64,000 nucleotides of DNA. It comes from Verrucomicrobiales bacterium (lineage in GTDB: Bacteria; Verrucomicrobiota; Verrucomicrobiia; Verrucomicrobiales; DEV007). The position numbers and the translations under genes are program-made. The notes below the pieces were generated by a model. The model was not told the DNA's origin, ran no database searches, and saw only the letters and a list, made by a program, of their open reading frames with translations. Numbering within the stretch: the stretch's first letter is position 1; every line of letters begins with the position of its first letter. The stretch lies in NCBI GenBank assembly GCA_048267005.1, contig JBLWYI010000013.1:118455-182454 (forward strand), written 5' to 3'. Of this stretch, positions 2,263 through 43,056 are shown piece after piece.

Positions 2263-2313
2263 TTTAAAAAAAAGCTGGACTGAAATAGATGGGATCTTTA
2301 GCATTGCCGGACT

Positions 2314-3018
2314 ATGCCGAGAAACAAAGTAGCTGAAATCTTCACATCTTTTCTCGATGCACCATGGGTCGCTCCTTGCGAGCGCCATGTGCGTGCACTT
2401 GAAGAGGATTGTGCCCATTGCTCATGTCTCCATGCTGGTGAGCAGGATTCAAACATGAGACAATTCATTGAAAAGTTCGTCTCTGAAGTCTCATCGAAAT
2501 ATCGATTGAAGCCTAATTCACTGATTGCCTATGCAATGGGACCAGTGCGAAACGGATCGGGCCCGACTAATCCTCACTTTGAATTTTACGCCTACAGAGG
2601 AGCGTCTTCCTACCCTCGTCCTGTGCCTCACAAATTGCTGAAATCTGATGGAGCATTTAGAAACATGCTGGGACGAGACGATGAGAGAGTCGTCGAAAGT
2701 AAATTGGAAGCAGCGGGCAATCCAGAATTTCCTTTTGTGCTTTCAAAGCTGGATCATGCCATCGGAGGGGATGGCTCAGCGTTTATGTTTTCTCGGGATT
2801 ATAGAGTGTCTCCTCGTCCTCTTGTTTCTCCAGCGTTCTATATTGGTGGTTTTGAAACAATTGGGCATGTATTTGGCGATCGTGGTAAAATACCACTGGC
2901 AGATGTCGTTCATCTCAAAGAGCTCTTCACTGCAAAATTATCCATAATGATGTTTCGGCATTCGACCTGCTGCAACCAGTTTGAGTATGTTGATGAGGAC
3001 CCGCTCACTATCGACTAA
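2314..3018 (+). CDS. Hypothetical protein (234 aa), no recognisable motifs; encoded immediately downstream of the helicase in the low-GC edge segment
   Basis: ATG-initiated 705-nt ORF co-directional with the helicase; low GC. Confidence 0.5.
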   Translation: MPRNKVAEIFTSFLDAPWVAPCERHVRALEEDCAHCSCLHAGEQDSNMRQFIEKFVSEVSSKYRLKPNSLIAYAMGPVRNGSGPTNPHFEFYAYRGASSYPRPVPHKLLKSDGAFRNMLGRDDERVVESKLEAAGNPEFPFVLSKLDHAIGGDGSAFMFSRDYRVSPRPLVSPAFYIGGFETIGHVFGDRGKIPLADVVHLKELFTAKLSIMMFRHSTCCNQFEYVDEDPLTID

Positions 3019-3116
3019 ACCCAACTCCAATTGGCATGCGGATGCGGATTTGATTACGGTTATTCCTACTTCGCCGATCTGGTGCAAACGTGAGTTTTAT
3101 TAAATTTATTGCCATG

Positions 3117-25648: not shown

Positions 25649-25717
25649 AGATTGAATCGTCTCTCAGGCCGCAATTTTCGTCAAGATCGTGAAATGGCTC
25701 AATCGGGCTGGCTGGAC

Positions 25718-26070
25718 GTGAATGGTCGTGACGGCAACCCGCTTCTGCTGCGGAAGAAGTGAATGGTCATGGTGGCAACTCGCTTCTGCTGCGGAAGAAG
25801 CGAATGGTCACGGTGGCAACTCGCTTCTGCTGCGGAAGAAGTGAATGGTCGTGGTGGCAACTCGCTTCTGCTGCGGAAGAAGCGAATGGTCATGGTGGCA
25901 ACTCGCTTCTGCTGCGGAAGAAGTGAATGGTCATGGTGGCAACTCGCTTCTGCTGCGGAAGAAGTGAATGGTCATGGTGGCAACTCGCTTCTGCTGCGGA
26001 AGAAGCGAATGGTCATGACGGCAACTCGCCTCTGCTGCGGAAGAAGTGAATGGTCATGATGGCAACTCGT
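25718..26070. repeat. Tandem array, 41-bp unit, ~8.6 contiguous copies ('gtgaatggtcatggtggcaactcgcttctgctgcggaagaa')
   Basis: Directly visible; units abut with no spacers, with a few point variants (c/t, a/g) between copies; sits in a divergent intergenic region. Confidence 0.95.
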
Positions 26071-26595
26071 TAGTAATGAGCCTTTTGTGTGTTGAGAGCC
26101 TGAACAGACGGGCTGGCTTGGACTTTTTCCTATGGTCCGACGCAGTTAAAGTTGAATTCGTTGAAAAACAGAACGGATTTTGGTGGTTAATGCGTTAATC
26201 AAAAGCAGGTTATAACCTTTGTTGAGTCTGTCTTGATTCCCCCTCAAACCAACCTGTTGCTGCGGTGAGTCGCCGTCCTCTCCCGCCGATATCACTTACG
26301 TAATTGTCCCGGCCGCCTCCCAAACAGGTGATTTGGCTGTGATATTTCTGGAAAATGGCTGTTTTCGGAGGCTGAAAGTCAAAATCGGCCCGTTGTGGCT
26401 ATTCGGATTTCCTTGCCAAAAGGGAGCGATTTCGTCATTCTGGCGTCATTACGTGGCACTTGTTTCCGCAGGGGTCCCTCTTGCTTAACCGCGCTTCGTA
26501 ACTATGTTTCTACTGGGTTGGTGTAATCTCGAGGCACCCATGCATTCCGAGATTTGTTCTGATCCTGTAAACTGTTTCAAGTTCCCTTCGACGTC

Positions 26596-29500
26596 ATGAA
26601 AAATCGTCCCACTCGCTCCTGCCTCAGCATTGCCGTATCCATATTAACGATTGGAGCCGTCCAGGCTGCGGATGACAAAAAAGCTGCGGCTGAAAAAATC
26701 ACTTATCAGGATCATGTGCTTCCTATTCTGGAAAACCGCTGCCTGAACTGCCACAACCCGGATGAAGCCAAGGGCGGACTCGACCTGTCTTCCTATGGCG
26801 CAACCATGAATGGTGGTTCCGGTGGTGAAGTGGTCATTTCCGAAGATGCAAACAGTTCGCGTCTCTACACGCTGACAGCTCATATTGAGACACCCAAGAT
26901 GCCGCCAGAGAAGCCAAAGTCTCCAGACAAAGAGCTCGAGACGATCAAGAAATGGATCGATGGCGGTCTGCTGGAAACGGCAAGTTCGAAAGCGAAGAAG
27001 TCGGACAAGCCCAAGCTGGATATGAATTTGATCACTTCGGTTGGTAAGCCGGAGAACCCCGCGATGCCGGAGCACTTGATTCTCGAGCCTGCGTTGGTGA
27101 CGGATCGTCCAAACTCGGTTCCGGCCATTGCGCACAGCCCGTGGGCTCCGATCCTTGCGGTGGCGGGTCAGAAGCAGGTGTTGCTCTATCACTCTGAAGA
27201 TTTCGATCTGCTGGGCGTTCTCCCTTACCCGGAAGGATTTCCGCAGTCGCTGAACTTTTCATCAAACGGATCGCTCCTCTCATGTGGTGGCGGTCGCGGT
27301 GGCAAATCGGGATCGGTTGTCGCCTGGGATGTAAAAACCGGTGAGCGGGTTATCGAAGTGGGAAAAGAATTCGATATTGTTTTGGGATCTGACATCTCAG
27401 CTGATCATCGCCGCGTGGTCATGGGGGGACCGGGCAAGAATATTAAGATTTGGGATACCGTTGCCGGCGAGCAGGTCAGCACGATTAAGAAGCACCCGGA
27501 CTGGATGTTGACGGCTGATATTTCTCCGGACGGAGTCCTTTTTGCGACAGGTGGTCGGAATTCGGGCCTTTATATATGGGAGACAGCAACCGGGCTGGAA
27601 TTTTACACCCTGAAGGGACACACCGGGGCCGTGACGGACCTGGCCTGGCGTCCGGACGGAAACGTTCTTGCATCGGTTTCCGAAGATGGACAGGCGATAC
27701 TCTGGGAAATGAATGAGGGCAAGCAGGTCAAAAAGTGGGCAGCCCACAGTGGCGGTGCGCTTGCGGTCGATATCGCCCCGGATGGAACGATTGCGACGGT
27801 GGGGCGTGATAAGAACCTGAAACTCTGGAAGGCCGATGGTGCGGCATTGAAAACGGTCGCGGCGAGTGATGACATTGTGATGAGCGTTGCTTTCTCTCAG
27901 GACAGCAAGCGGGTGATTACCGGTGATTACTCAGGAAACATCAAGGTTTGGAACATTGCGGACGGGGTGGAGCTGGCCAAGCTGGATTCGAATCCGCCAA
28001 CGATCGATCAGCAGCTTGCCTACTCGACGAAGCGGATTGCAGAAGTCCGCGGCAACCTTCCGAAGTTGCAGGAAGGCATCAAGGCGGCCGGCACGGAATT
28101 GACCGCTGCCACCGCCAAGGCAGGAGAAGTGAATAAGGCTTTTTCAGAGGCTGCCGGCAAAAAAGGGGCCGCAGAAAAGTTGGTCGCGACTCTGGATGGA
28201 CAGGTCAAGACTTACACGGCGCAGGTTCAGGCTGCGCAGAAGAACGTGGCGGCCAAAGCGGCTGATGCGAAGGCGAAGACAGATGCTTACAACGCCACGG
28301 TGACCGCACAGACAGAGGCGAAGAATGAGGTCACTAAGTGGACCGGGGCTTTCCAGAAAGCAGAAGCAGCCGCGAAACAGGCGGCGACGAATTTAGCAGC
28401 CGCCAAAGCTGCGGCTGAAAAACCCATGCTGGATGCGGCGACGCAAAAAGCGTTAACGGATGCCGTGAACGGCTACAACGCAGCGGATGCCGCCAAAAAG
28501 CAGGCAGATGCGAAGGTTGCTCAGGCAAAAGCGGCTGATGATGCCGCGAATCAAAAGCTGGCTGCGGCGAACAAGGCCAAGGCTGATAATGCCGCCAAGG
28601 TCACTGCGGCGACGGCAGCGGCAAAGAAAGCGGCTGATGCGCTGGCTGCCGCTTCCCAAAACGGTGCTGTTCCCCCTGCTCCGGTTGTTCAAGCTGATGC
28701 CGCTGCGAAGAAAGCCCTGCAGCAATCCCAGGCGGCATTGAACACGGCTTCTCAAGCGCAAGTGGCGGCACAAAATGCCAGGAACGCGACAGCGAAACAA
28801 CTCGCTGATGCCACTGCACTTCAGGCACCGGCTGCGAAGAAGCTGGCTGATGCGGGCGCGGCTCTGAAGCCGTTGCGCGAGAAAGAGGCGGCGGCAAAAG
28901 CGGTGCTTGATAAGGCGAAGGCTCTTTTGGCCCAGCGCACGACTGAGAATGCGGCTGCGGCGAAGGCACTGGCTGATAACAAAGCGCAACTGGACAATGC
29001 GAATAAGAATATCGCGGCCGCAGACGCCAAAGTGAAGTCGGCTCTGGGTGCCCGTGATGCGGCGAATGTCGCATCAAAAGCTGCCAGCGATGATCTGGCT
29101 GCGAAGAATAAGACTTTGGCGGATGCCAATACCAAACTGAAGACTTCAAAAGAGGAAGTCGCAAAGCTTACCGCTCTGGTTGATAATTTGACGAAGCAGA
29201 AAGAAGCCAGCGCAAAACTGGTCGCTGCAATCCAGAAGAAAGAGGCGGACGCCAAGAAGTCTGTCGAAGTCGCTCAGATGGAAGTTCAGACGAACGAGTT
29301 TCTGGTTAAGAAGTTCACTGCAGCAGCCATCAATCTGGATGCGAAGGAGCAGGCTGAAGAACTCGTGGAAATGACCGAGGAACTTGAGGAGAAAGTCGTG
29401 GAAGTGGCTGAAGCGAGTGAGGAATTCAAGAAAGCGGCTCAATCCCGTGCCGCTGCCGAGAAGACGCTCGCGGATGCGAAGAAGACCGTTGATGAAGGGA

Positions 29501-30090
29501 AGAAAGAGCTTTCGATGACTTCTTCCAACGTTCTCGAGAAAGCGATGCGACTTGCCGCGGCCCGTGCGGTGGCTGAAGTTCGTGCGGATGTGATTGGTGA
29601 AGTGGCCAGCGATGTTGAGCCGGACACCGACGCGAATCCTGAAACTGCAAATGCGGTTGCTGAAGGGGACATGCCGAAGGCCGACACAGAGGAGGAGGCA
29701 CCTATGGATCCCGATGAAGCCGAGGTGGTTGCCGTGGCTGCGGATGCGCTCTTGACTAAGAAATCACGTGAAGAGATCGAGAAAGAAATCGACGACTTGC
29801 GTGCCCGTCTCCAGACGCTGGAGGGTGTGATTCGTGAATCCTATGACAAGGCGGATAAGACTCATGAAACCGTGATGAAAGCCTCTGACGTCGCGGCGAA
29901 GACTCCGAAAGTGATTGAAGAGCGTGCCAGAATTGAGTCCATGAAAGCTCAGGAGAAACAAAAGATTGAGCAGGCAAAAGCACAGCAGGAAAAGGCTGTG
30001 GGCGATCAGAAGTCTAAGATTGAGTCATTGAAGAAGAAATATCTCGAGTCGGTTCCCAAGCGGGATGAGATCAAAAAGCCGGTCGAATAA
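26596..30090 (+). CDS. Large secreted protein: planctomycete cytochrome c-like domain + WD40 beta-propeller + ~700-aa Ala/Lys-rich coiled coil
   Basis: Signal peptide; 'CLNCHNPDEAKGGLDLSSY'; WD40-type repeats ('ILWEMNEG', 'KLWKADG', 'IKVWNIADG'); long AAKA/EAAK low-complexity helical region. Confidence 0.85.
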   Translation: MKNRPTRSCLSIAVSILTIGAVQAADDKKAAAEKITYQDHVLPILENRCLNCHNPDEAKGGLDLSSYGATMNGGSGGEVVISEDANSSRLYTLTAHIETPKMPPEKPKSPDKELETIKKWIDGGLLETASSKAKKSDKPKLDMNLITSVGKPENPAMPEHLILEPALVTDRPNSVPAIAHSPWAPILAVAGQKQVLLYHSEDFDLLGVLPYPEGFPQSLNFSSNGSLLSCGGGRGGKSGSVVAWDVKTGERVIEVGKEFDIVLGSDISADHRRVVMGGPGKNIKIWDTVAGEQVSTIKKHPDWMLTADISPDGVLFATGGRNSGLYIWETATGLEFYTLKGHTGAVTDLAWRPDGNVLASVSEDGQAILWEMNEGKQVKKWAAHSGGALAVDIAPDGTIATVGRDKNLKLWKADGAALKTVAASDDIVMSVAFSQDSKRVITGDYSGNIKVWNIADGVELAKLDSNPPTIDQQLAYSTKRIAEVRGNLPKLQEGIKAAGTELTAATAKAGEVNKAFSEAAGKKGAAEKLVATLDGQVKTYTAQVQAAQKNVAAKAADAKAKTDAYNATVTAQTEAKNEVTKWTGAFQKAEAAAKQAATNLAAAKAAAEKPMLDAATQKALTDAVNGYNAADAAKKQADAKVAQAKAADDAANQKLAAANKAKADNAAKVTAATAAAKKAADALAAASQNGAVPPAPVVQADAAAKKALQQSQAALNTASQAQVAAQNARNATAKQLADATALQAPAAKKLADAGAALKPLREKEAAAKAVLDKAKALLAQRTTENAAAAKALADNKAQLDNANKNIAAADAKVKSALGARDAANVASKAASDDLAAKNKTLADANTKLKTSKEEVAKLTALVDNLTKQKEASAKLVAAIQKKEADAKKSVEVAQMEVQTNEFLVKKFTAAAINLDAKEQAEELVEMTEELEEKVVEVAEASEEFKKAAQSRAAAEKTLADAKKTVDEGKKELSMTSSNVLEKAMRLAAARAVAEVRADVIGEVASDVEPDTDANPETANAVAEGDMPKADTEEEAPMDPDEAEVVAVAADALLTKKSREEIEKEIDDLRARLQTLEGVIRESYDKADKTHETVMKASDVAAKTPKVIEERARIESMKAQEKQKIEQAKAQQEKAVGDQKSKIESLKKKYLESVPKRDEIKKPVE

Positions 30091-30096
30091 GCGGCC

Positions 30097-30135
30097 GGAT
30101 CGACAGGGCAACAGGGTGTGATCGTAAAACGATCG
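30097..30135. repeat. REP-like repeat ('ggatcgacagggcaacagggtgtgatcg')
   Basis: Core CAACAGGGT in the short gap after the WD40 gene stop. Confidence 0.5.
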
Positions 30136-31647
30136 CGCCCTGAAAAAAGTCCGGCAGGGGAGTTGCGGCGTAGTAGTCTTACGTCGTTGAAATTTCTCTT
30201 CATATTACTTATCCCGATCCTTTTCGGAGGGAGTCTGGCAACAGGGCAGGAGTTGCCCGTTGCGGCGCGGATTCATTGTTCCGGTTGCCATCAGCCTCCC
30301 CGCCCCGGTTCCATGACCCGGGAGGCTTGGTTTCCTACGATCGCCATCATGCTCGAACTGATGGAGGAACAAAAGTTCCCCCTTCCGACCCGGAGCCAGT
30401 TTATTGAGATCACTGACTTTTACGTGAAGAACAGCCCGGTCGATTACGAACCGGCGAAGGACGACCTGGAGCCGTCGAAGATTCCTTTTGAAAAGGTAAC
30501 GGTGGGGGATAAGCCGGTCAATGAGCGGCCGCAGGTCACTAACGTGAGAGTTTGTGACCTGGACGGGGATGGGCAATCCGATGATGTGGTGGTCTGCGAC
30601 AATGAGTTTGGAACGGTCAGTTGGCTGCGATTGCTGGACGATGGAAAGACCTGGAAAGAAACCGTCATTGCGGAGGCGCCGGCTCCGGTGCGGTCGACTG
30701 TCTTCGATTTTGATGGCGATGGGGATATGGACATCGCGGTATCAGCGATGGGATTCATGCACCCTAACGATCGGTTGATCGGTGAGTTCCATTTGCTGCT
30801 GAACCGGGGAGATCAGACATTCGAGCAGAAAGTTCTGCTGAAGGGCACGCCACGCATTGCAGATATCGCCCCGGGGGATTTCGACGGGGATGGCGACTTT
30901 GATTTCGTGATCGCGATGTTCGGATGGCGGACGACCGGCGGGATCGGGCTGTTGACTCAGGAGGCAAACGGGAAGTTTAAATTTGATACGGTCTTCAAGA
31001 TCAACGGAACGATGCGGGTGACCCCTGCGGACCTGAACGGAGATGATAAGCTCGACTTTCTGGCACTGATCACGCAGGAGCACGAGACTATCGGGGGGTT
31101 TATGAATCAGGGGGACGGGAAGTTTGCAGATACGGTCGTCGCGAGAGCGAATCACCCGGTGTTCGGCTCATCGGGGATCGAGTGGGCCGACCTCGATGGT
31201 GACGGGGACATGGATATCGTCTACTCGAACGGCGATATGATGGATGAAAACCCTGAGCCGAAGCCGTATCACGGGATACGATGGTTTGAGAACAGAGACG
31301 GTAAGTGGATCTTGCACCAGATCGCCCAGATGCCGGGCTGCTTTTCGGGTTCGGTCCGTGATATGGATGGGGACGGCGACCTCGATATCGTTGCCTCAGC
31401 TCTGTACTTTCATTGGGATGTGCACGACTTTCCCAGCTTGATCTGGCTGGAGAATACCGGAGGCGCGAAGTCCTTCATACGCCGGAGGATTGCCTATGCC
31501 CCGTCAAACCTGGCGAGCACAGACGTGGGAGACCTGAACGGAGACGGTCTCCTCGATATTGTGGGCGGCGGGATGCATGTTCCCGGGCCGACGGGCCGCA
31601 AGGGACGCCTGACCCTATGGTTACAAAAGCCGGCGGAAACCGACTGA
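30118..31647 (+). CDS. FG-GAP / VCBS repeat beta-propeller protein (integrin-alpha-like), secreted
   Basis: Repeated 'DxDGDGDxD' loops ('DLDGDGQSDDVVV', 'FDFDGDGDMDIAV', 'DFDGDGDFDFV', 'DLDGDGDMDIV'). Start uncertain: GTG at 30118 lies inside the REP-like element; TTG at 30187 would yield signal peptide 'MKFLFILLIPILFGGSLA'. Confidence 0.75.
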   Translation: MIVKRSRPEKSPAGELRRSSLTSLKFLFILLIPILFGGSLATGQELPVAARIHCSGCHQPPRPGSMTREAWFPTIAIMLELMEEQKFPLPTRSQFIEITDFYVKNSPVDYEPAKDDLEPSKIPFEKVTVGDKPVNERPQVTNVRVCDLDGDGQSDDVVVCDNEFGTVSWLRLLDDGKTWKETVIAEAPAPVRSTVFDFDGDGDMDIAVSAMGFMHPNDRLIGEFHLLLNRGDQTFEQKVLLKGTPRIADIAPGDFDGDGDFDFVIAMFGWRTTGGIGLLTQEANGKFKFDTVFKINGTMRVTPADLNGDDKLDFLALITQEHETIGGFMNQGDGKFADTVVARANHPVFGSSGIEWADLDGDGDMDIVYSNGDMMDENPEPKPYHGIRWFENRDGKWILHQIAQMPGCFSGSVRDMDGDGDLDIVASALYFHWDVHDFPSLIWLENTGGAKSFIRRRIAYAPSNLASTDVGDLNGDGLLDIVGGGMHVPGPTGRKGRLTLWLQKPAETD

Positions 31648-31655
31648 AAACAGAC

Positions 31656-32135
31656 TCAGTTTGTACCCAGGTCTTTCTGGATCTGTTCGAAATCTCCCTC
31701 TTCGCAGCAGCGGACGAATCCTTCAATGAAGGCTTTCAGCTTATCCCATACGAGTCGGATCTGAGCGGACTCTTCGGGGGTGATGGTATTATCAAGGGCT
31801 GCCTGTGAAACTACAGTGAGGAGTCCGGCGAACTGCTGGACGATTTCGTGGGTGGCTGGAACCACTTCATATCCCTCCTGGCAGGAGCTTTTCGGGTTGT
31901 TGACGAAATAGCCGCCGGCCTGCTGGCTGAGCCATTCGACAATGGCCGGTTCTTTGGTCAGCTGAATGAGCTGTGAGACCCGATCGAGCGGGTTCTTACT
32001 GCCGGAACCGTTTTCCGAGTTGGGTTGGGCCCACTTATAAACGAGCGAAAGAGAGACCCCCATTTCAGAGGCGATTTCTTTCGGGCTGGTCGTTGGGCTT
32101 TCGAAGGCAGTCTTGAGGACCTCGTGCGATTCCAT
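31656..32135 (-). CDS. Small HTH DNA-binding protein (putative transcriptional regulator), divergent from the NfeD-flotillin operon
   Basis: ATG at 32135 ('MESHEVLKT...'); HTH-like 'SPKEIASEMGVSLSLVYKWAQ'; ORF-track 70-codon upstream extension rejected. Confidence 0.6.
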   Translation of the reverse strand: MESHEVLKTAFESPTTSPKEIASEMGVSLSLVYKWAQPNSENGSGSKNPLDRVSQLIQLTKEPAIVEWLSQQAGGYFVNNPKSSCQEGYEVVPATHEIVQQFAGLLTVVSQAALDNTITPEESAQIRLVWDKLKAFIEGFVRCCEEGDFEQIQKDLGTN

Positions 32136-32420
32136 AGGCGTAGATTTTGGTTTAATTAGTGGGATAAAACAAGCTTCGGTTTTCTGAAGTTGAGACGATT
32201 TCATCAGAACAGCCCGGGATCGTCCGTTATAAACGCCTGTCTGTATTGTAACGGGAGTGATGACATCGTCGAAACTTACAAAAGTATCGACCAATTGTAA
32301 TGGGCAAAGGACGGGCAACGGGGCAACATCCTCACATGCGGTCAAAATAAGAGTAAGCCAGCTTGACGAACCTCATTTGAATTTTACACACTACCCACCA
32401 AGAACCACAGACCACAAGCC

Positions 32421-33167
32421 ATGCCAGAAATCATCCAGGAAGCGTTCAGGGGAATCAACCTTCCGATCACCATCGCACTTGGTGTCATTCTACTTTACTG
32501 GATAATCGCCATGTTGGGTATGATCGACCTGGATGCCATCGACGGATTTCTGGGGCTTGATACGGACGTTCACGTTGATGTGGACGGGCACGGGCACGGG
32601 CAAGGGGGCGACTCCGTAGATGGACACGGTGATGTTGAAGGACACGGCGAGGGGGCAACTCCTGAATCCCATTCGCCGAATGCCTTTCAGGCTGTTGCAA
32701 AGTTCATGGGCGCACAAGATGCGCCCATCATGTTTGTGCTGAGCACCTTCACGCTCATTCTCTGGGCGGGGAATTTGATCGGGAACTATTATTTCAACAA
32801 AGGTGACTCCACCTTTCTCGCCAACTGCATTCTGGGAGCCAGTCTGGTGGGCGCTTTCCTGCTCACCAAGCTTACGGTGCGCCCGCTCCGGCCTTTGATG
32901 AAAATGATGCGAACCGCATCGAACAATGAGCCTGTGATCGGAATGGCGGGAACGGTCCGCTCCAAAGAATTAACCATCGAATCAGGACAGGTAGAGGTGA
33001 TACAGGATGGCGCGTCCATTTTGTTGAATGCCCGGCTCTCCGAAGGTGCGTCCCGGCAGGTTGATCGAGGTGCTCAGGTATTGATCGTTGCGCGCGACGA
33101 TGACGGTAAGCGCTACGTGGCCAGGCCTCTCACACCCATTTCACAGAAAGAAACCAATAACAATTAA
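32421..33167 (+). CDS. NfeD-like membrane protein (short form, C-terminal OB-fold) with His/Asp/Gly-rich insert
   Basis: N-terminal TM helices, His-rich loop 'HVDVDGHGHGQGGDSVDGHGDVEGHGEG', C-terminal beta-rich NfeD-type domain; immediately upstream of an SPFH gene (canonical pairing). Confidence 0.75.
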   Translation: MPEIIQEAFRGINLPITIALGVILLYWIIAMLGMIDLDAIDGFLGLDTDVHVDVDGHGHGQGGDSVDGHGDVEGHGEGATPESHSPNAFQAVAKFMGAQDAPIMFVLSTFTLILWAGNLIGNYYFNKGDSTFLANCILGASLVGAFLLTKLTVRPLRPLMKMMRTASNNEPVIGMAGTVRSKELTIESGQVEVIQDGASILLNARLSEGASRQVDRGAQVLIVARDDDGKRYVARPLTPISQKETNNN

Positions 33168-33192: not shown

Positions 33193-35283
33193 ATGATACT
33201 AGCAGATATACCATTTTGGGCTCAGATCCTTGGATTCGCGATAGTCGCGGTCGTTGTGATTCTGTTCGCCACCGGCATCGTCTATGCCAGCCTCTTTAAA
33301 AAGGTTAAGAAAGGAACCGCTCTGGTCGTGACCGGTTCGGGAGGAACAAAAGTCTCCTTTAACGGGATCTTTGTTATTCCGATCTTTCATCGTGTTGAAG
33401 AGATCGACCTGTCTGTAAAGCGGATGGAGGTCGACCGGACCGGAGCGAACGGCTTGATCTGTAAGGACAACATGCGGGCGGACATCAAAGTTGCCTTCTT
33501 TGTCCGGGTGAATCCAACCAAAGACGATGTCATCCGCGTTGCGAATTCAATCGGGTGTGAGCGGGCTTCGAGTCTCGCTGAGGTTGAGCATCTGTTTGAT
33601 GCGAAGTTTTCTGAAGCCTTGAAGACTGTTGGTAAGCGCTTCAACTTCATTGAGCTTTATGAGGAACGGGACACCTTCCGTGATGAGATGATCAAGTTGA
33701 TCGGGACAGACCTCAATGGGTTCTCTCTTGAAGATGCGGCGATCGATTTCCTTGAGCAAACTCCACTGAGTTCGATGGATCCGGACAACATTCTCGATTC
33801 AGAAGGTATCAAGAAGATTACCGAACTGACCGCTACCCAGGCAAAGCTGGCGAACAATATTCAACGTGACAAGGAAAAGGTCATAAAGCAGCAGGACGTC
33901 GAGGCGAAGGAAGCAATTCTTGAGCTGGAACGACAGCAGGAAGAAGCGGTGTCCAAGCAGGCCCGCGAAGTGGCCAACGTTCGTGCCCGTGAGGAGGCGG
34001 AGTCTGCGAAAGTCATGCAGGAAGAAAAGCTGAAGTCCGAGCGTGCCCGGATTCAGACTGAAGAGGAAGTCGAGATCGCGACTCAGAACAAAGAGCGTGA
34101 GGTGATCGTTGCCCAGCGTAACAAGGAACGGACTGATGCCGTGGAACTTGAGCGGGTGAAGCGTGATCAGGAGCTTGAGGCGATCGAGCGGGACCGTGTT
34201 ACAACTCTGAAAGAGATCGAGAAGGAGAAGGCGGTTGAGATCGAGAAGAAGGAGATCCAGGACGTGATCAAGGAGCGCGTCGCAGTTGAAAAGCTGGTGG
34301 TTGAAGAGCAGCAGAAGATTCTCGATACCGAGGCCTTTGCCGGAGCTGATCGTGAGAAGCAGGTTGCCGTGACACTTGCGGAGAAGACAGCGCAGGAAGG
34401 CTTGATTCAGAAGATCAAAGAAGCCGAGGCAGCCAAGGAAGCGGCCCAGCTCAAGGCGGATCAGGACCTTTACGAGGTTGTGAAAAGAGCAGATGCCAGC
34501 AAGCAGGCTGCTGAATTGAAAGCTGAGGAAGTGGTCGTGGCCGCGGAAGCAGAGCAGACCGCATCAGAGAAACTCTCTGTGGCGAAGAAAACTCTCGCTG
34601 AAGGTGTCAAAGCTGAGATGGCGGCTCCCGGGTTGGGTGAAGCTGATGTGGTTGCTGCCCGCGGTAAAGCGGAAGCGTCTGCGGTTCAGGCGAAAGGCCT
34701 GGCGGAAGCTGAGGCAATCAGAGCGCATGGTTTGAGTGAAGCTGAAGGTATCGATGCGAAAGCGGATGCGATGAAGAAATACAACGACGCCGGTAAAGAG
34801 CATGAAGAATTCAAGCTCAACCTTGAGAAAGCGAAGGCGGTTGAACTCGCTGAGATCGAAGTTCGTGCCAAGGTTGCGGCGAAGCATTCTGAGGTCATGG
34901 CTGAAGCGCTTAAGTCTGCCAATATCGACATTGTCGGTGGTGAGACTGAGTTCTTCGACAAGATCACGAGTGCCATCACTCAGGGGAAAGCGGTTGACCG
35001 TCTGGTCGATAACAGCCACACCCTGACTACGGTTCGCGACACGTTCTTCACGGGTGATCCTGAAGATTTCCAGATTCAGATTCGCGAGTTCGTGGATCGG
35101 TTTGGAGTCTCCAGTGATGACCTGAAGAATCTCTCGATTGCCGCACTTCTCACCAGCATGATTGACCAGGCAGGTGACGATGGTGATACCAAGGGTAAGC
35201 TTGGCAGCATGTTAGGTGCCGTGAAGCGCTTCGGTATCAGCGACGAAAATGCCGGAAAAGTAATCAAGCGATTGACCAGTTAA
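33193..35283 (+). CDS. Flotillin / SPFH (band 7) family protein with extended E/A/K-rich coiled coil
   Basis: N-terminal TM anchor; SPFH core 'FIVPIFHRVEEIDLSVKRMEV...DIKVAFFVRV'; 696 aa, longer than typical FloT/YqiK. Confidence 0.9.
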   Translation: MILADIPFWAQILGFAIVAVVVILFATGIVYASLFKKVKKGTALVVTGSGGTKVSFNGIFVIPIFHRVEEIDLSVKRMEVDRTGANGLICKDNMRADIKVAFFVRVNPTKDDVIRVANSIGCERASSLAEVEHLFDAKFSEALKTVGKRFNFIELYEERDTFRDEMIKLIGTDLNGFSLEDAAIDFLEQTPLSSMDPDNILDSEGIKKITELTATQAKLANNIQRDKEKVIKQQDVEAKEAILELERQQEEAVSKQAREVANVRAREEAESAKVMQEEKLKSERARIQTEEEVEIATQNKEREVIVAQRNKERTDAVELERVKRDQELEAIERDRVTTLKEIEKEKAVEIEKKEIQDVIKERVAVEKLVVEEQQKILDTEAFAGADREKQVAVTLAEKTAQEGLIQKIKEAEAAKEAAQLKADQDLYEVVKRADASKQAAELKAEEVVVAAEAEQTASEKLSVAKKTLAEGVKAEMAAPGLGEADVVAARGKAEASAVQAKGLAEAEAIRAHGLSEAEGIDAKADAMKKYNDAGKEHEEFKLNLEKAKAVELAEIEVRAKVAAKHSEVMAEALKSANIDIVGGETEFFDKITSAITQGKAVDRLVDNSHTLTTVRDTFFTGDPEDFQIQIREFVDRFGVSSDDLKNLSIAALLTSMIDQAGDDGDTKGKLGSMLGAVKRFGISDENAGKVIKRLTS

Positions 35284-35465: not shown

Positions 35466-38400
35466 ATGCCCGAAGAACCAATAGAAAAAAACACTGACGC
35501 CGGGGCGTCAGGAGCGGAGCAGCAACTCGAAGGCGGTGCCTACGAGATCATCCGGAACCGCCTCACGCAGCACGGTTCGGATCTGCGAACCCGGCTTGGG
35601 AAACTCAACTCGGAACGGCAGGCCGTCTTTGGTGCCGTTGAGCCTGCCTTAATCGCGACCGAGCGGGTAACGACCGACAATAATTGTGAAGCCCGTGACA
35701 TCATCGCTGTCGGCGATAACAAGTTCATCTTTGGTTACAATGTTCACATCGGTCTTAAGTCGATAACTGATCTTGCAGATGTGTTTGCGGCTTATGAATA
35801 TGATCCTGACACGCACACATTTTCGGATGTGGGATTGGATATTCTGAACAAGGGCACTTTTGCCGAGGACTTTCTTTACCTGTATAAATACTATCGGGAA
35901 ACAGTCTTCGTGAAGTTTATGAAGATCGGGCCGCACCTCTACATGGCGTTCCGGGTGGGCAAAAAGGTGGATGACATCAAATGCTTCAAGTGGCTCATCA
36001 AAGAGGGTGGTGTTCTGGAATACATTGGCAACCGGTTCGATCATGAATACAGGTTTCCGCCTCAGCAGGAGTTTGAGTGGGTGCGCGCACATCGCGGGAT
36101 GTACCGCGAGGGGATGCACCCGCATGTTTCGATCGACGACCGGCTTTTTGTTGAGACCGTGGGAGGCGACCTGACTGTAAAGGTCGAGGACAACACAGAG
36201 TCAGGGGAGGGGATTTACGAAGAGCAGGTGACCAATGAGGATCAGACTCTGGATGACGCCGAGATCTTTTATGCCATTGTCGGCAGCCTCATTTTGTTGA
36301 AGGTCCTGCCTTATCAGGAAAAGGATTACCGCTACCTCGTCTACAATGAGAAAGTCAAGTCGGTCACCAGGATTGATTCGATCGCAAACTCCTGTGTGTT
36401 GCTTCCGGAAGATCACGGGATCATCTTTTCCGACGGCTTTCACCTTCAGACAGGGGATACCAAGCGTTTCGATTCAGGACTGAGAGATATGCTCTTTGAG
36501 CGACGGGTCGCTTCGCCCAATGGAGAGGATTTCCTTTACGTGTTTTACAACCGGCTGTCAGGGACCTATGTCCTGATGTCGTACAATCTCATCGATCAGA
36601 AGGTTGATAACCCGATTGTTTGCAACGGTTACACCGTTTTTAAAAACGGGGAGTTGATCTACTTCCGCACGGATGAAGAACCGAAGAAACACCATGCTCT
36701 TCAAGTCTGGACAACGCCCTACATGGAGGGCGAGTTCCGTGTCGATGAGAAGACGGACAGCTACCTTTTCAAGATCGGGAACGCAGAGGTGGTGCGTGCC
36801 ATGGCGGAGTGCCATGAGATATTAAATCTGATCTCCCGGGATGATTCTTACGCCGACTTGTATGTGGATCTGACCAAGAAAGCTGGTGACCTGATTGATA
36901 CTTACTTCTGGATTGGCCAGGAAGCTGCGTTCAACTTGAAAGCTGCCCTTGGTGAAATCAAGGGAGCTGCAGAGGCAGCAATATCCGAGTTTGACAAGGT
37001 TCAACGCCTTCGCAAATCAACGGCTGACGAGTCAAAACGGGTTTCCGATTCAGCGAAACAAATCGCTAAGGCGGCGCGTAATACACGCCCCGATGACATC
37101 ATGGGTTTCGTCCACCGGTTATCGGAATTGCGGACCGTTCGTGGAGAAATTATTTCCCTGAAGGATCTGCGTTACGTTGACTCTGATACGGTTGAATCTC
37201 TCGAAGCTGAGGTGGTCGAGGCTACCGAAATGGTGTCGCAGAACTGTGTGGAGTTTCTTCTGGAGCCTGTTGCACTTGATCCTTACCGAGAGCAGGTCTC
37301 AGTTCAGGAGAAACGGGTTCCTGAAGTGGCGAAAGTAACTGAGGCGGATCAGGTTGAGGAGGAACTCGACAAGGCCGGAGCGGAGTTGGAGATGCTGATT
37401 GAGATCGTCACGAACTTAAAGATTGAAGACGCGACGCAGACCACGCAGATCATTGATGATATATCGGCCATCTACGCGACGCTGAATGCGGTTCGTGCTT
37501 CGCTAAGGAATCGCCGCAAGGCACTTTCGAAAACCGAAGGCGCGGCTCAGTTCGGGGCGCAGGTAAAGCTGATCAACCAGGCCGTGATCAATTATCTGGA
37601 TTTGTGTGAGACGCCGGAAAAGACCGACGAGTATCTCTCCAAGGTCATGGTCCAGCTCGAGGAACTTGAGGGGAACTTTTCGGACTTCGAAGATTATGTT
37701 GATGAACTGACCGAAAAGCGGGACGAGATCTACAACGCGTTTGAATCAAAGAAAGTCGCTCTTGTCGAAGCGCGAAACAAACGGGCTGGATCGCTCGTGA
37801 AGTCAGCCGAGCGGGTTCTCACTACAATTCAGCATCGACTTTCCAGTCTCGATTCAATCCCGGATATCAATGGCTATCTTGCTGGCGATTTGATGGTCGA
37901 GAAAGTGCGGGATATCATTGAACAGCTCAATTTGGTCGGGGATTCCGTCAAAGCCGACGACATTCAGACACGGCTGAAAACGCTGAGGGATGATTCAGTT
38001 CGTCAGCTAAAAGACCGCCAGGAGCTGTTTGTCGACGGAAAGAATATTATCCAGTTCGGGAACAATAAGTTTTCCGTCAATTCACAGGAGTTGGAGCTCT
38101 CAATTGTTCCGCACAATGAGAAGATGTGTTTTCACCTGAGCGGGACAGATTTCTTTGAAGCTGTAACCGATGAAGAATTTCTATCGACAAAATCGGTCTG
38201 GAATCAGGAAGTGCTTTCAGAAAACCGAACCGTTTATCGTGCTGAATATCTGGCGTGGAAGTGTTTGCAAGCCGGTGTGGAGCCGACTCTCGAAGCCGTT
38301 CAGAAATTCATGGCTCCGCGATACGCGGAGGGTTATACCAAAGGAGTTCACGACCGCGATGGATTTGCCATCTACGAAAAGCTGCATTCGGTTCACAGCC

Positions 38401-40661
38401 AGGTTGGGTTGCTTCGTTTTGCTCCTGAAGACCGGGCGCTTGCGTTGCTGTTCCTTCACCAGTGGAAAACAGATGGGGGGCATGATCAACTCGCGAAGAA
38501 GATTCGTGGCCTTGGAATTCTAAGAGAGAGTTATGCTTCGGATGCGGTGGCTGAAATTTACGTTGGGGAAATCAAAGACGAGCTCAATCATTTTCTCGAA
38601 ACCAGTGCGAGAAACTGCCCTCGCCTTAAAGCGGCAAATATTGATCAAGCGGCTGAGTATTTGTTTTTCGAATTACTCGATGCAAAGAAGTTTGCGATAT
38701 CGCCTCAAGCTGGCGAGGTCGTGAAACAGTTTCAGCATACGTTAACCGCGAAGCGGCTTGAGAAGCAGTTCGCGGCCGCGGTGGAAGGTTTCAATGGTGA
38801 TGCCACGGGACGCTTCGAAGTCACTCGCGACTGGATCGAGGGAATCTGTGGAGCTGAGATTGAGAAGAATGAGGTTTCCCCTGATCAACTGTCAACGGAC
38901 GGAGAGAAGCAGGAACGATCCAACACTGTAAGTTCGTTGAACGTACCCTATTGGATCGAAGCGGCGGTTCATCTGGTTCGGGGAGGGTTTGAATTGACGG
39001 CGATTCAGCAGATTGAAATGTCAGCCGCTTTGGAGGGGATTACCGGGTCGCACTCACTTGTGGAAGACGGGGTTTACCAGTTCGATTATATCAATTTCAC
39101 TCAGAGGTTGCGTCGTTTTGAAACCGAGGACGCTCCGCGCTTCGCTGCGTATCAGCATCGCAAAACCGATTTGATCGAATCCAAGCGCGAGGAGATGCGT
39201 TTGGAAGAGTTTAAGCCCAAGGTGATGTCTGCATTTGTGCGGAATAAATTACTGAACCGAATCTATCTCCCGTTGATCGGTGACAATCTGGCGAAGCAAA
39301 TGGGAACTGCCGGTGCGGATACCCGGACAGACCGAATGGGAATGTTGCTTCTGATTTCTCCGCCCGGATACGGAAAGACGACTTTGATGGAATACGTCGC
39401 CAACCGGTTGGGGATCACATTCATGAAGATCAACGGGCCGGCCATCGGGCATGATGTGACTTCCCTGGATCCGGAAGAAGCGCCCAATGCAAGCGCCCGC
39501 GAGGAGGTCAACAAGCTGAACCTGTCGCTTGAGATGGGGGACAATGTCATGATTTATCTCGATGACATTCAGCACTGCAACCCTGAGTTTTTGCAGAAGT
39601 TTATTTCGCTATGTGATGCTCAGCGGAAGATCGAGGGCGTCTGGAAAGGCAAGCCGCGCACTTATGACTTGAGGGGAAAAAAGGTCTGCGTCGTGATGGC
39701 TGGAAACCCTTACACCGAGAGCGGTGGCAAGTTTCAGATTCCCGACATGCTCGCGAACCGGGCGGACACTTATAATCTGGGGGATATCATCGGGGCTCAT
39801 TCCGGTGACTTCGAGGCGAGTTACGTCGAGAACTGCCTCACTTCGAACTCTGTCCTGAGTCAACTCGCCAGTCGCAGTCAGTCGGATGTCTATTCGGTGA
39901 TGAAGATTGCGGAAACGGGCAGCCACGAAGGAGTCGACTTTGAAGGGAACTATTCGATGGAAGAGATTGAAGACTTGGTCTCGGTGATGAAGAAGTTGAT
40001 GCGGGTTCGCGATACGATCCTGCGGGTAAATATGGAATACATCCGTTCCGCCGCGATGGAAGATGACTACCGCACCGAGCCACCATTTAGAATGCAGGGC
40101 TCATACCGGAACATGAACCGGATCGCTGAGAAGATCTTACCGATCATGACGGATGCCGAGGTCGAGCAAGTGATTATGGATCACTATGAAAATGAATCGC
40201 AGACGCTGACGGCCGGAGCGGAGGCAAATTTGCTGAAATTCCGGGAGCTGGAAGGGATTCAGACTGATGAGGAGAAAGTGCGGTGGGATGAGATTAAATC
40301 GAAGTTCAATCGCAATCAGTTGATGGGCGGACGTGGTGAAAACGATCCTGTCTCACGGGTGGTTGGCACGCTGGCGAGTATTCATGAAACTCTGGCAAAA
40401 GCGGCAACGCACCAGATGCAGCCTGCTACGTTGGCTGATGTAACGGTTGAGAGGTTGGCTGAAATTATTGCAAACCTGCGAGCGGTTCCGGTGGATGTAG
40501 AGATCAAGGTGGTTCCCGTTCACGAAGGCGAAGAAGAGGGGCCTCCTAAGAAGGTATCGAAAAAGAAGTCAGCTAAAACGAAAAAGATCTCAGGCAAGGA
40601 GATCAACCTTCCCGTGGATGTTGAGGCTGTCGTCGACCAAAAAGATGGTAATTCGGACTAG
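35466..40661 (+). CDS. Giant (1731 aa) protein of unknown function with a single MoxR/AAA_5-like P-loop ATPase module near the C-terminus
   Basis: ATG at 35466; Walker A 'SPPGYGKTT' (~aa 1290), Walker B 'VMIYLDDIQH', sensor-1-like 'VVMAGNP', Arg-finger-like 'DMLANRADTY'; ~1250 aa upstream with no motifs I recognise; Lys-rich C-terminal tail. Confidence 0.85.
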   Translation: MPEEPIEKNTDAGASGAEQQLEGGAYEIIRNRLTQHGSDLRTRLGKLNSERQAVFGAVEPALIATERVTTDNNCEARDIIAVGDNKFIFGYNVHIGLKSITDLADVFAAYEYDPDTHTFSDVGLDILNKGTFAEDFLYLYKYYRETVFVKFMKIGPHLYMAFRVGKKVDDIKCFKWLIKEGGVLEYIGNRFDHEYRFPPQQEFEWVRAHRGMYREGMHPHVSIDDRLFVETVGGDLTVKVEDNTESGEGIYEEQVTNEDQTLDDAEIFYAIVGSLILLKVLPYQEKDYRYLVYNEKVKSVTRIDSIANSCVLLPEDHGIIFSDGFHLQTGDTKRFDSGLRDMLFERRVASPNGEDFLYVFYNRLSGTYVLMSYNLIDQKVDNPIVCNGYTVFKNGELIYFRTDEEPKKHHALQVWTTPYMEGEFRVDEKTDSYLFKIGNAEVVRAMAECHEILNLISRDDSYADLYVDLTKKAGDLIDTYFWIGQEAAFNLKAALGEIKGAAEAAISEFDKVQRLRKSTADESKRVSDSAKQIAKAARNTRPDDIMGFVHRLSELRTVRGEIISLKDLRYVDSDTVESLEAEVVEATEMVSQNCVEFLLEPVALDPYREQVSVQEKRVPEVAKVTEADQVEEELDKAGAELEMLIEIVTNLKIEDATQTTQIIDDISAIYATLNAVRASLRNRRKALSKTEGAAQFGAQVKLINQAVINYLDLCETPEKTDEYLSKVMVQLEELEGNFSDFEDYVDELTEKRDEIYNAFESKKVALVEARNKRAGSLVKSAERVLTTIQHRLSSLDSIPDINGYLAGDLMVEKVRDIIEQLNLVGDSVKADDIQTRLKTLRDDSVRQLKDRQELFVDGKNIIQFGNNKFSVNSQELELSIVPHNEKMCFHLSGTDFFEAVTDEEFLSTKSVWNQEVLSENRTVYRAEYLAWKCLQAGVEPTLEAVQKFMAPRYAEGYTKGVHDRDGFAIYEKLHSVHSQVGLLRFAPEDRALALLFLHQWKTDGGHDQLAKKIRGLGILRESYASDAVAEIYVGEIKDELNHFLETSARNCPRLKAANIDQAAEYLFFELLDAKKFAISPQAGEVVKQFQHTLTAKRLEKQFAAAVEGFNGDATGRFEVTRDWIEGICGAEIEKNEVSPDQLSTDGEKQERSNTVSSLNVPYWIEAAVHLVRGGFELTAIQQIEMSAALEGITGSHSLVEDGVYQFDYINFTQRLRRFETEDAPRFAAYQHRKTDLIESKREEMRLEEFKPKVMSAFVRNKLLNRIYLPLIGDNLAKQMGTAGADTRTDRMGMLLLISPPGYGKTTLMEYVANRLGITFMKINGPAIGHDVTSLDPEEAPNASAREEVNKLNLSLEMGDNVMIYLDDIQHCNPEFLQKFISLCDAQRKIEGVWKGKPRTYDLRGKKVCVVMAGNPYTESGGKFQIPDMLANRADTYNLGDIIGAHSGDFEASYVENCLTSNSVLSQLASRSQSDVYSVMKIAETGSHEGVDFEGNYSMEEIEDLVSVMKKLMRVRDTILRVNMEYIRSAAMEDDYRTEPPFRMQGSYRNMNRIAEKILPIMTDAEVEQVIMDHYENESQTLTAGAEANLLKFRELEGIQTDEEKVRWDEIKSKFNRNQLMGGRGENDPVSRVVGTLASIHETLAKAATHQMQPATLADVTVERLAEIIANLRAVPVDVEIKVVPVHEGEEEGPPKKVSKKKSAKTKKISGKEINLPVDVEAVVDQKDGNSD

Positions 40662-40703
40662 ACCGAATTATCCACCTTCGTAGCCTCCCAAGCGCGCCAC
40701 TTA

Positions 40704-40726
40704 GGCGGTTGCTACGCCGCCTTTTT
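40704..40726 (+). terminator. Possible terminator hairpin (ggcgg..gccgcc + TTTTT) overlapping the 3' end of the convergent sulfatase gene
   Basis: Short GC stem with a T-run ~45 bp after the giant gene stop; weak. Confidence 0.3.
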
Positions 40727-42295
40727 CTTCTGGTCTGCTTTAGGTTTGGCTTTCCCCTTGTTTTTCATTCTCTGATCACGTCGACTTGGAGGGTCCTGTG
40801 CCGGGAGCTGATAAACTTCGCGCAGACGTTTCAGCTCAGCTTCGAGCGCCTTCTGAATTTCTGCGTATTCCGGCTTGCCGTGAACAGAGACAAGTTCGTT
40901 GGGATCTTTTTGGATATCGAAAAGCTCGAATTCGGCGGGTTCAAGATTGTAATAATGAATCAGCTTATGTTTTCCATCAGTGACGCCGTAGTGGCGGGCC
41001 ACGGAGTGCGCTCCGGGGAACTCATAGTAGTGATAGTAAAAAGAAGTCCGCCAGTCTTCGGGGGTGTTTCCTTTAAAGATAGGAACGAGGCTCTTGCCTT
41101 GCATATCGGCCGGTACTTCGACGCCTGCGAGATCCAAAAAGGTTTCTGCAAAGTCGAGGTTCGAGACAATGTCGTTGTTGACCGAACCGGGCTTGATGAC
41201 GCCGGGCCAGCGGGCGAGAAGTGGTGTCTTGAGTGATTCTTCATACATCCAGCGTTTGTCGAACCATCCATGTTCACCAAGATACCAGCCTTGGTCACTG
41301 GAATAAATAACGATGGTGTTCTCAGCCAGCCCGGCTTCCTCAAGGTAGTCAAGAACGTCGCCGATTGCGTCATCTACAGACTTCACACAGCGGAGGTAGT
41401 CCTTCACGTAGCGCTGATATTTCCATTTGATGATTTCCTTCTCCGTCATGGAGTCACGCTTTGCGAGATAGGCTTCATTCTTCGGCTTGTAGGCTGCGTC
41501 CCATGCCGCCCGCTGCTCAGACGTCAGGTTTCCTGGGGCTTTTAGTTTCAAGTCGGCTTCGGTAAGATGCCGTTTGATTTCCATGGTCTGCTTTCCCGCG
41601 GGGCTCGCCCGGTTGGCGTAGTCGTCAAACAGTGTTTGGGGTTCGGCGATCGTTTCATCGTCCAGCCAGGTCAGGTATTTCGGCCCGGGTTGCCAGTTGC
41701 GGTGCGGGGCTTTGTGCTGAAACATCAGCATGAATGGTTTGTCGTCCTTGCGCTGGTTCTTCAGCCAATCGAGGGCTTTATCGCGGATGATATCAGTGGT
41801 GTATCCGATATGTTCCCGCTTGGTTGCTTTTGCTTCAATGCCACCGTGGAGCATGGGTGGATTGTAATAGGGGCCCTGTCCAACAAGAACGTCGAAGTAA
41901 TCGTAACCCTGTGGAGTCGATCCAAGGTGCCACTTACCGACGACGGCAGTCTGATACCCGGCGGCGTGGAGCAGTTTAGGAAAGGTCTGTTGATCTCCGT
42001 TGAAGGTATTCCCGTTGGTCATGAAACCGTTGAGATGACTGTACTTTCCGGTTTGAATGACGGCGCGACTTGGGCCGCAAATACCGTTCGTGACATAACA
42101 GCGTTTGAATTTCATGCCTTCATTAGCAATGCGATCCATATGAGGCGTGATGATTCGGGAATCATCATAGGCGCTCAGTGCCTGCTCACAGTGATCGTCC
42201 GTGAAGATAAAAACGATATTTGGCCGGTCAGCAGATCGGGCGACGCCGGCCAGCAGCAAACTGCAGAGCAGGATTACAGGGGTGAAATTCTTCAT
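40712..42295 (-). CDS. Sulfatase (secreted)
   Basis: ATG at 42295 gives signal peptide '[22 protein letters not shown]'; '[15 protein letters not shown]' sulfatase motif. Confidence 0.9.
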
Positions 42296-42435
42296 GGCGA
42301 TAAAGTGACTGAAATTGAGGTGAGCGGCAATCCCACGAATGGGCCTCTTTCTTCGGAACAAGGTTGAAGTGTTTGCTTTTTCATGCAAAATCGACTGATC
42401 GATTCGTCAAACTCGTATCGTTATCTGATCCTAAG

Positions 42436-43056
42436 ATGAAAAATCTTCTTCGTTCCTCTCCCGTTTTCGCACTCTTTGCTGCTGTGTTCCAGGTCTGTGG
42501 CCCTGAGTTATTTGCTGTCGACTTTGATGAGGATGTTGAGCCCATTCTCCGGAAGAAGTGCTTCAAGTGCCACTCCGGTCCCCGTGCCAAGGGTGGCTTG
42601 CGGATGGATAACAAAACGTATTTTCAGAAGAAGATCGCGGAAGAGGATGGAATCCCGATTTTCCCCGGCCACCCTGAAAAGAGTTTGATGGTTAGAAAGA
42701 CATCGTTGCCCCGTACCGACACGGACGCCATGCCGCCGCCAACGCGTGGCGAGCCTTTGTCTGCTGTTGAGCTTGGAACAATCAAGAAATGGATCACCGA
42801 AGGTGCAAAGCTGGAAAAAACGGAGGGGACTGATGCTCCCACCACTCCCGACACTGATCCAAAACCTGCTGCGGACATGACCAAGCTTCACACTTGGACC
42901 AACACGGAAGGAAATTCGCTGAAAGCTGCGTTCGTAAAGCTTGATGGACGAAATGTGGTGTTGAAGAAAGAGGACGGAAGCGAGTTCTCCTACCCAATGT
43001 CGAGTCTTGCGGCTGAGAGTCGAAAGCTCGCAACTGACTTGTCTACTGCTCAGTAA
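42436..43056 (+). CDS. Secreted planctomycete cytochrome c-like domain protein with C-terminal SHD1-like domain
   Basis: ATG at 42436 ('MKNLLRSSPVFALFAAVF'); 'CFKCHSGPRAKGGLRMD'. Confidence 0.75.
   Translation: MKNLLRSSPVFALFAAVFQVCGPELFAVDFDEDVEPILRKKCFKCHSGPRAKGGLRMDNKTYFQKKIAEEDGIPIFPGHPEKSLMVRKTSLPRTDTDAMPPPTRGEPLSAVELGTIKKWITEGAKLEKTEGTDAPTTPDTDPKPAADMTKLHTWTNTEGNSLKAAFVKLDGRNVVLKKEDGSEFSYPMSSLAAESRKLATDLSTAQ

Follow-up and report, generated by a model that had tools for sequence, protein, structure and literature searches.

Operons that combine CesT/Tir, PspA, YqiJ/YuaF and Band-7/flotillin genes with a gene for a protein containing a beta-propeller, a coiled coil and an AAA+ ATPase were described by Ravi, Anantharaman, Aravind, Gennaro et al. 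(2024; mSystems 9:e00847-23, PMC11237479). Abbreviated operons (flotillin, YqiJ/YuaF and sometimes the ATPase) were reported to be more widespread, and a role in sub-membrane assembly and dynamics was suggested from comparative genomics; the description gives neither the AAA+ clade nor an experiment. The NfeD2-SPFH2 gene pair (YqiJ-YqiK, YuaF-FloT) has been on record since 2009. PspA is a member of the ESCRT-III superfamily, the roles of its Band-7 partners are undetermined and a Vps4-like ATPase appears to be absent in bacteria (2025 review; PMC7619361). Here, an operon of this type was analysed in a 64,000-nucleotide stretch of DNA from a Verrucomicrobiales bacterium (contig JBLWYI010000013.1, positions 118,455 to 182,454; hereafter the window). 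Its third and last gene (35466..40661, ATG start) encodes a DUF3686-DUF7902-AAA+ protein of 1731 amino acids (aa) which, as judged from its sequence, is a member of the known, computationally described DUF3686/DUF7902 AAA+ family. We consider it somewhat probable that this protein uses ATP to remodel flotillin (and PspA) assemblies, as the ATPase subunit of a three-gene membrane-scaffold module. All features lie on the forward (+) strand unless stated otherwise.

The locus shares with the operons of Ravi et al. (2024; PMC11237479) the protein architecture, the two membrane partners and the gene order. The Bacteroidota loci recovered in the present analysis represent the full form, and their gene order equals that given for Dokdonia donghaensis (ANH61663.1) in Table S3 of that paper. 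The window differs in carrying the abbreviated form, without CesT/Tir, PspA and the helix-turn-helix (HTH) plus S24 regulator, and in having a divergent CII-like HTH gene and a conserved palindrome. The window protein itself is an ordinary member of an already noted family. What is added to the published description is the assignment of the motor to the MoxR clade, the invariant DD Walker B motif, the invariant loop between strand 2 and helix 2, the predicted spectrin-like rod, the private C-terminal extension of the flotillin, a quantified operon linkage and a lineage-specific candidate regulator of the CII-like type with its conserved palindrome.

The identical protein and more than 4200 homologue clusters (90% identity) are present in the protein database; nearly all of the clusters are 1650-1800 aa long, with Pfam content matching that of the 1731-aa protein. 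When one genome per GTDB species was scanned, full-length relatives were found in at least 546 species genomes belonging to six or more phyla, so that the architecture, considered uncommon in the original prediction, is a common one. In the best 80 loci of these at least 546 species (Verrucomicrobiota, Planctomycetota, Bacteroidota, Kiritimatiellota, Hydrogenedentota and Fibrobacter) the identity over the full length is 48-86%; the closest relatives among the matches listed are Verrucomicrobiales metagenome-assembled genomes. Across phyla the identity is 48-60% and the gene order is stable. Family lengths range from about 1600 to 1900 aa, which includes the present protein, and the family motifs SPPGYGKTT, DDIQH, MAGNPY, MLANRAD and QGSYRNM are all found in its single C-terminal AAA+ module. 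Because of the identical database entry, the homologue clusters, the relatives in other species and the conservation of the AAA core across phyla (see below), the open reading frame (ORF) is taken to be a real gene and not a chance ORF.

The operon context, which was not remarked on in the original prediction, is the most informative feature of the protein. Directly upstream lies a gene (33193..35283) for a 696-aa flotillin-like SPFH protein of the YqiK/FloT type, preceded by a gene (32421..33167) for a 248-aa membrane protein of the YqiJ/YuaF type (NfeD2-like). Linkage was counted over related loci with enough upstream sequence: 60 of 65 have a flotillin-like gene as the immediate upstream neighbour in the same orientation, and 54 of 63 have a yqiJ-like gene upstream. 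The linkage to flotillin is thus near-obligate. In the exceptional loci without a flotillin neighbour, unrelated genes adjoin the ATPase gene. Beyond the three core genes, no window neighbour of the AAA+ gene is conserved across the related loci.

The identity of the two partners was established by profile-profile alignment. Using hhalign, the YqiJ-like family profile was aligned with Escherichia coli YqiJ almost end to end (97.6% probability, E = 3.3e-12, 191 columns), and Pfam YqiJ_N matches 24 of 56 YqiJ-like homologues; a PDB search by sequence and profile with this family gave no match. Three transmembrane segments (about residues 11-41, 101-121 and 130-151) are followed by a C-terminal soluble domain. 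After the first of them, an acidic loop rich in Asp, His and Gly, DTDVHVDVDGHGHGQGGDSVDGHGDVEGHGEG, occupies aa 37-80 (32529-32660), with alternating Asp residues (DxDxDxDxD) in the family consensus; on sequence grounds it might be a metal-binding or sensing loop.

For the flotillin-like family profile, hhalign against E. coli YqiK gave 100% probability (E = 1.3e-42, 411 columns) and hmmsearch gave E = 6.6e-72, covering only profile positions 14-451 of 674. The NCBIfam FloT model matches the protein with E = 1e-7; the Pfam Band_7 and Flot models do not recognise it. The protein is composed of an N-terminal transmembrane segment (aa 1-38), the sequence KKVKKG, the SPFH domain, an E/A-rich coiled coil and a C-terminal extension. 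Since KKVKKG follows the transmembrane segment, the bulk of the protein is predicted to be cytoplasmic according to the positive-inside rule. The pairing of an SPFH scaffold with an NfeD-type partner is the same as in E. coli yqiJ-yqiK and Bacillus subtilis yuaF-floT. E. coli YqiK differs in that it is without the C-terminal extension of about 220 residues (aa ~470-696, about 34600-35280), which is conserved in the family and shows no alignment with YqiK. By alignment, the extension appears private to this flotillin subfamily, and it is a candidate docking region for the ATPase.

The AAA+ protein carries the four motif strings reported in the original prediction at the positions given there (about aa 1290-1450): LLISPPGYGKTTLMEYV at aa 1295-1311 (P-loop), NVMIYLDDIQHCNPEFLQKFISL at aa 1360-1382 (Walker B), KVCVVMAGNPY at aa 1406-1416 and IPDMLANRADTYNLG at aa 1425-1439. 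They fall within an AAA+ alpha/beta core (39243..39800, aa 1260-1445) that is preceded in the model by a long linker helix. The core contains Walker A GYGKT (K1304), Walker B DD (D1366 and D1367; 39561-39566), a predicted pre-sensor-1 beta-hairpin (aa 1388-1401), sensor-1 N1414 and a candidate arginine finger, R1432. Among 74 sequences there is no variation in Walker A, the DD of Walker B, the sensor-1 Asn or the candidate arginine finger, and the catalytic motifs are kept in 61-63 of 66 sequences (the window protein and 65 full-length cluster representatives, the N-domains of which are only ~30-57% identical to that of the window protein). Measured against the window protein, 73 relatives that represent six or more phyla show 83-91% identity in the AAA core, compared with 40-70% in the rest of the chain. 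The invariant motifs and the conservation of the core make it likely that the protein is an active ATPase under strong constraint.

The module had been predicted to be a single C-terminal one of the AAA_5 type, related to MoxR and dynein, and this is supported. At aa 1294-1417 the Pfam matches are weak, namely 25.9 bits for AAA_5 (cut-off 22) and 31 bits for PF00004 AAA (cut-off 21.2), and profile searches of the module against PDB sequences gave matches confined to the P-loop of p97, VAT and RuvB. NCBIfam and PADLOC yielded no more than P-loop similarity. By fold search, the nearest AAA+ structures are MoxR, midasin and dynein modules. The pre-sensor-1 hairpin is modelled as two strands (aa 1388-1393 and 1396-1401; positions 549-562 of the model) located after Walker B and before sensor 1. 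An invariant loop (NGPAIGHDVTSLDP; about 18 residues, NGPAIGHDVTSLDPEEAP) leads from strand 2 into an uninterrupted helix 2, and its consensus NGPxxGHxVTSLDP is without an aromatic residue. The classic AAA clade (Vps4, p97/CDC48, FtsH; PF00004), which is marked by a full-length PF00004 match, a second region of homology with paired arginines, an aromatic pore loop 1 and the lack of a pre-sensor-1 hairpin, was rejected; here the hairpin is present, the loop has no aromatic residue and the PF00004 match is weak.

Assignment of the motor to the MoxR/AAA_5 group is supported, with several atypical features. Compared with the MoxR ATPases CbbQ, NorQ and RavA (AAA_5/AAA_3), the Walker B motif reads DD where DE is usual, and does so in all family members examined (hhhhDDIQH), the lid comprises about 195 residues, about 1250 additional N-terminal residues are fused in cis and no VWA/MIDAS partner gene is present. 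No strands are predicted in the model at the place of the helix-2 beta-hairpin, so no clear hairpin of this kind is seen, and the identity to the MoxR structures is only 12-15%. Midasin/Rea1 and the dynein heavy chain also have AAA_5 modules and long helical linkers; they differ in having six concatenated AAA modules per chain and not one. With a single module per chain, the 1731-aa protein would need to oligomerise.

The last ~280 residues had been suggested to be simply the AAA lid. This holds for aa 1446-1640 (39801..40385), which form a conserved, extended helical lid or C-domain in the model, with the near-invariant sequence QGSYRNM (aa 1544-1550) as a possible sensor 2. It does not hold for aa 1641-1731 (40386..40658), a variable Lys-rich tail of low model confidence (block pLDDT 36-65) with 7-22% identity and many gaps among the relatives.

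The region N-terminal to the motor, which could not be placed in any family in the original prediction, is covered in part by two named Pfam families with no known function. DUF3686 matches aa 39-481 with E = 9e-183 (608.3 bits, cut-off 25) over its whole profile (1-448 of 448) and DUF7902 matches aa 603-685 (37272-37520) with E = 1e-28 (99.7 bits, cut-off 26). When the DUF3686 region was used as a phmmer query on 1.84 billion cluster representatives, 728 clusters scored E <= 1e-3 and 254 reached E <= 1e-30. As the complete clusters were all 1.5-2.0 kaa long, DUF3686 seems to exist solely in the DUF3686-DUF7902-AAA+ architecture.

Two AlphaFold2 models were calculated from 78-sequence alignments, one for aa 1-900 (mean predicted local distance difference test score, pLDDT, 84.2) and one for aa 840-1731 (pLDDT 83.1, predicted template-modelling score 0.72). 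After a helix at aa 23-55, the core of DUF3686 (aa 61-416, 35646..36713) is modelled as a beta domain of about 28 strands. Its best Foldseek matches in the PDB are WD-repeat and other propellers (Elp1, E = 2.6e-6; the WD-repeat domain of DCAF1, E = 4e-6, probability 1.0), and lower-ranked matches include prolyl-oligopeptidase and clathrin propellers. The fold predicted by the model is a beta-propeller, called divergent because the Foldseek template-modelling scores are low. It is followed by a helical rod (aa 433-854, 36762..38027) that contains DUF7902 and is predicted to consist of spectrin-like helical bundles, since the fold search with the rod model returned spectrin-repeat matches. A middle region (38046..38981), delimited by the secondary structure and pLDDT of the model and by the conservation profile, begins with a small beta domain of five strands (aa 861-899), which is followed by a helical domain (aa 925-1172) with little conservation beyond aa 1000; this region has no Pfam match, and sequence and profile searches of the PDB with aa 850-1250 gave none.

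The linkage to PspA and CesT is facultative. PspA_IM30 (E = 4e-41) is encoded in ten Bacteroidota loci, nine of which also carry CesT_Tir_1 (E = 4e-54). In these nine loci the CesT_Tir_1 and PspA_IM30 genes precede the core operon, together with a divergent gene for an HTH_3 + Peptidase_S24 protein of the self-cleaving LexA/CI-like type (for example, the three genes span 1932-4063 in locus L035 and 1813-4061 in locus L082), and the CesT/PspA arrangement was confirmed by independent gene calls in Hymenobacter swuensis CP007145.1. No homologues of PspA, CesT or the S24 protein were found anywhere in the 64-kb window.

In the role that we favour, the 1731-aa protein would be the soluble, cytoplasmic ATPase subunit of the yqiJ-like/yqiK-like/DUF3686 AAA+ module. 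No transmembrane segment is predicted in it and the bulk of the flotillin-like protein is predicted to be cytoplasmic; the topology therefore fits the proposed partnership. The single MoxR-clade AAA+ modules most likely assemble into a hexameric ring, as in other MoxR ATPases, each subunit projecting a spectrin-like rod of ~420 residues tipped by the beta-propeller. The six rod-and-propeller arms would then replace the separate VWA adaptor of other MoxR ATPases. The propellers would dock on the side of the flotillin-like oligomer that faces the cytoplasm, with the C-terminal extension of this flotillin subfamily as a plausible site, and where the operon carries CesT/Tir and PspA they may also dock on PspA polymers. 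When the envelope or membrane is under stress, ATP hydrolysis would remodel the scaffolds, whether by assembling, opening or disassembling them.

The analogues of the proposed remodelling are Vps4 acting on ESCRT-III and FtsH inside HflK/C cages. FtsH with HflK/C shows that an AAA+ machine can operate together with an SPFH cage; FtsH differs in being a membrane-anchored AAA protease of the classic clade. The comparison with Vps4/ESCRT-III and archaeal CdvC/CdvB is one of functional analogy only, in that the gene of an AAA+ ATPase lies together with that of the membrane-remodelling polymer on which the ATPase acts. The more specific proposal that the protein is a counterpart of Vps4, that is, a remodelling motor for flotillin cages with or without PspA polymers built from a MoxR-clade module with its own propeller and spectrin-like adaptor, is put forward tentatively, as a possibility.

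Several observations weigh against a remodelling role. MoxR ATPases usually act with a VWA partner. No VWA/MIDAS domain was found by Pfam in the protein or its window neighbours, nor was a VWA domain found among the recurring or inserted neighbour genes of the related loci scanned in the same way. The absence of an aromatic residue from the strand 2-helix 2 loop makes threading of the Vps4 type unlikely; it favours surface remodelling as in the MoxR, midasin and dynein relatives. The Walker B motif is an atypical, invariant DD. In ~8% of loci the ATPase gene has no adjacent flotillin gene, and PspA is absent from the window and from the Verrucomicrobiota and Planctomycetota loci. Literature searches on DUF3686, PF12458, the name 'DNA repair ATPase' and flotillin with MoxR gave nothing relevant, and no experimental work was found on any family member.

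The main rival explanation is that the protein is an ATP-driven chaperone or extractor of client membrane proteins gathered on a flotillin platform, with flotillin and YqiJ merely serving as anchor or organiser, as HflK/C does for FtsH. The operon linkage is equally compatible with this explanation, a beta-propeller is a generic protein-binding platform, and the MoxR relatives CbbQ and NorQ are known to remodel folded client complexes and not polymers. However, no conserved client gene is found nearby, as only the three core genes recur. Furthermore, the flotillin extension is present where the ATPase is encoded and absent from E. coli YqiK, the operon of which (yqiJK) has no adjacent AAA+ gene; this points to a direct interaction between flotillin and ATPase. 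A client chaperone is regarded as rather unlikely.

A membrane-associated anti-phage or conflict system, in which infection would be sensed, or the response to it carried out, by the ATPase at the membrane, is considered improbable. Large NTPases with propeller or coiled-coil sensors are common in defence systems, the divergent HTH_3 + Peptidase_S24 repressor of the Bacteroidota loci is of the phage CI/LexA type and the divergent gene of the window is phage CII-like. DUF559 endonuclease-like and DMP19-like genes also occur in or beside some loci, with AbiEii nearby. Against this, PADLOC-DB v2 gave no meaningful match, the best being IetA with E = 0.001 over 30 residues at the P-loop, followed by mad8 (0.023) and LmuB (0.057). 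The 48-60% identity across phyla and the stable gene order are housekeeping-like, in contrast to the patchy distribution and fast evolution of defence genes, and the flanks of the window operon are ordinary metabolic and envelope genes.

A role in DNA repair, which is implied by the NCBI product name ('DNA repair ATPase') and the Pfam description of DUF3686 ('ATPase involved in DNA repair') and to which weak P-loop-level RuvB matches and the S24 (LexA-like) regulator beside the Bacteroidota operon could be added, is very improbable. The NCBIfam RuvB scores (25.6 and 22.5 bits) are about a tenth of the cut-offs (282 and 299) or less, and the 25.6-bit match covers only ~48 residues around the P-loop. 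The protein contains no nuclease, helicase or DNA-binding domain and the operon no DNA-related domain. With only 60 residues between them, Walker A and Walker B belong to a single uninterrupted module at the C-terminus and do not form a split ABC/SMC head. Both conserved partners are membrane proteins, and no supporting paper was found in the literature searches. The name probably arose from coiled-coil similarity to SbcC-type entries, with which the weak SMC-like coiled-coil match to LmuB is consistent. Dynamin, STAND, SMC/SbcC and RuvB assignments were rejected; Pfam, NCBIfam and PADLOC scans gave no dynamin, STAND or SMC signature, as already noted in the original prediction, and RuvB is far below its cut-off.

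Much work has been done on bacterial flotillins and PspA, which organise and repair membranes, and their assembly is not known to be controlled by any energy-consuming factor. If the protein is a remodelling motor of the proposed Vps4-like kind, it would explain how some bacteria control scaffold dynamics and would provide a first biochemical function for the NfeD2/YqiJ-flotillin pair. The family is a testable candidate, being conserved and linked to flotillin in hundreds of species, including the cultivable Hymenobacter, Pontibacter, Rhodopirellula and Dokdonia. Thousands of database entries carry the name 'DNA repair ATPase' without support, and the name is unfit for inference.

A CII-like HTH protein (Pfam Phage_CP76, E = 1e-6, 159 aa) is encoded divergently from the operon at 31656..32135 on the - strand. 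The mechanical ORF reaches 32345, ~70 codons beyond the conserved part; the start is probably at M71, as suggested by homology and by an independent gene call, a 159-aa Phage_CP76 gene having been called independently in locus L081. Homologues occupy the same divergent position in loci L001, L003, L004, L006, L007, L015 and L052. The divergent position is conserved in the Verrucomicrobiales and Opitutales relatives, and the gene is on the same strand in a Kiritimatiellota locus (L029). The HTH protein is a candidate regulator of the operon. With an S24-type regulator in Bacteroidota and a CII-like one in the window, different lineages appear to use different regulators for one core.

Two palindromes of the form TTACAA-N13-TTRTAA (32227-32251 and 32276-32300, no strand assigned) occupy the divergent promoter region ahead of the yqiJ-like gene. 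They are the only two such sites in the 64-kb window, where 0.00 were expected (100 shuffles). The palindrome recurs at the equivalent place in seven loci (L001, L003, L005, L006, L007, L015 and L052) and is the only conserved block in an alignment of eight divergent intergenic regions. The pair is a candidate operator.

In Bacteroidota, variable small genes separate the flotillin-like gene from the AAA+ gene or closely follow the latter (L059 7344-7901; L041 6612-7698; L082 7582-7956 and 13046-13465; L072 6283-7982). Their products include DUF559 endonuclease-like, DMP19-like, DUF3997 and DUF3592 proteins and several without a match.

A terminator-like G+C hairpin followed by a T-run is located at 40703..40732, between the end of the operon and a convergent sulfatase gene. 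The flanks (23282-31647 and 40712-43056) encode a PSCyt1 + PSD1-5 protein, a WD40 + PSCyt1 protein, an FG-GAP repeat protein, the sulfatase and another PSCyt1 protein. These genes are typical of the Planctomycetes-Verrucomicrobia group and are conserved beside the operon only in the closest relative, L001.

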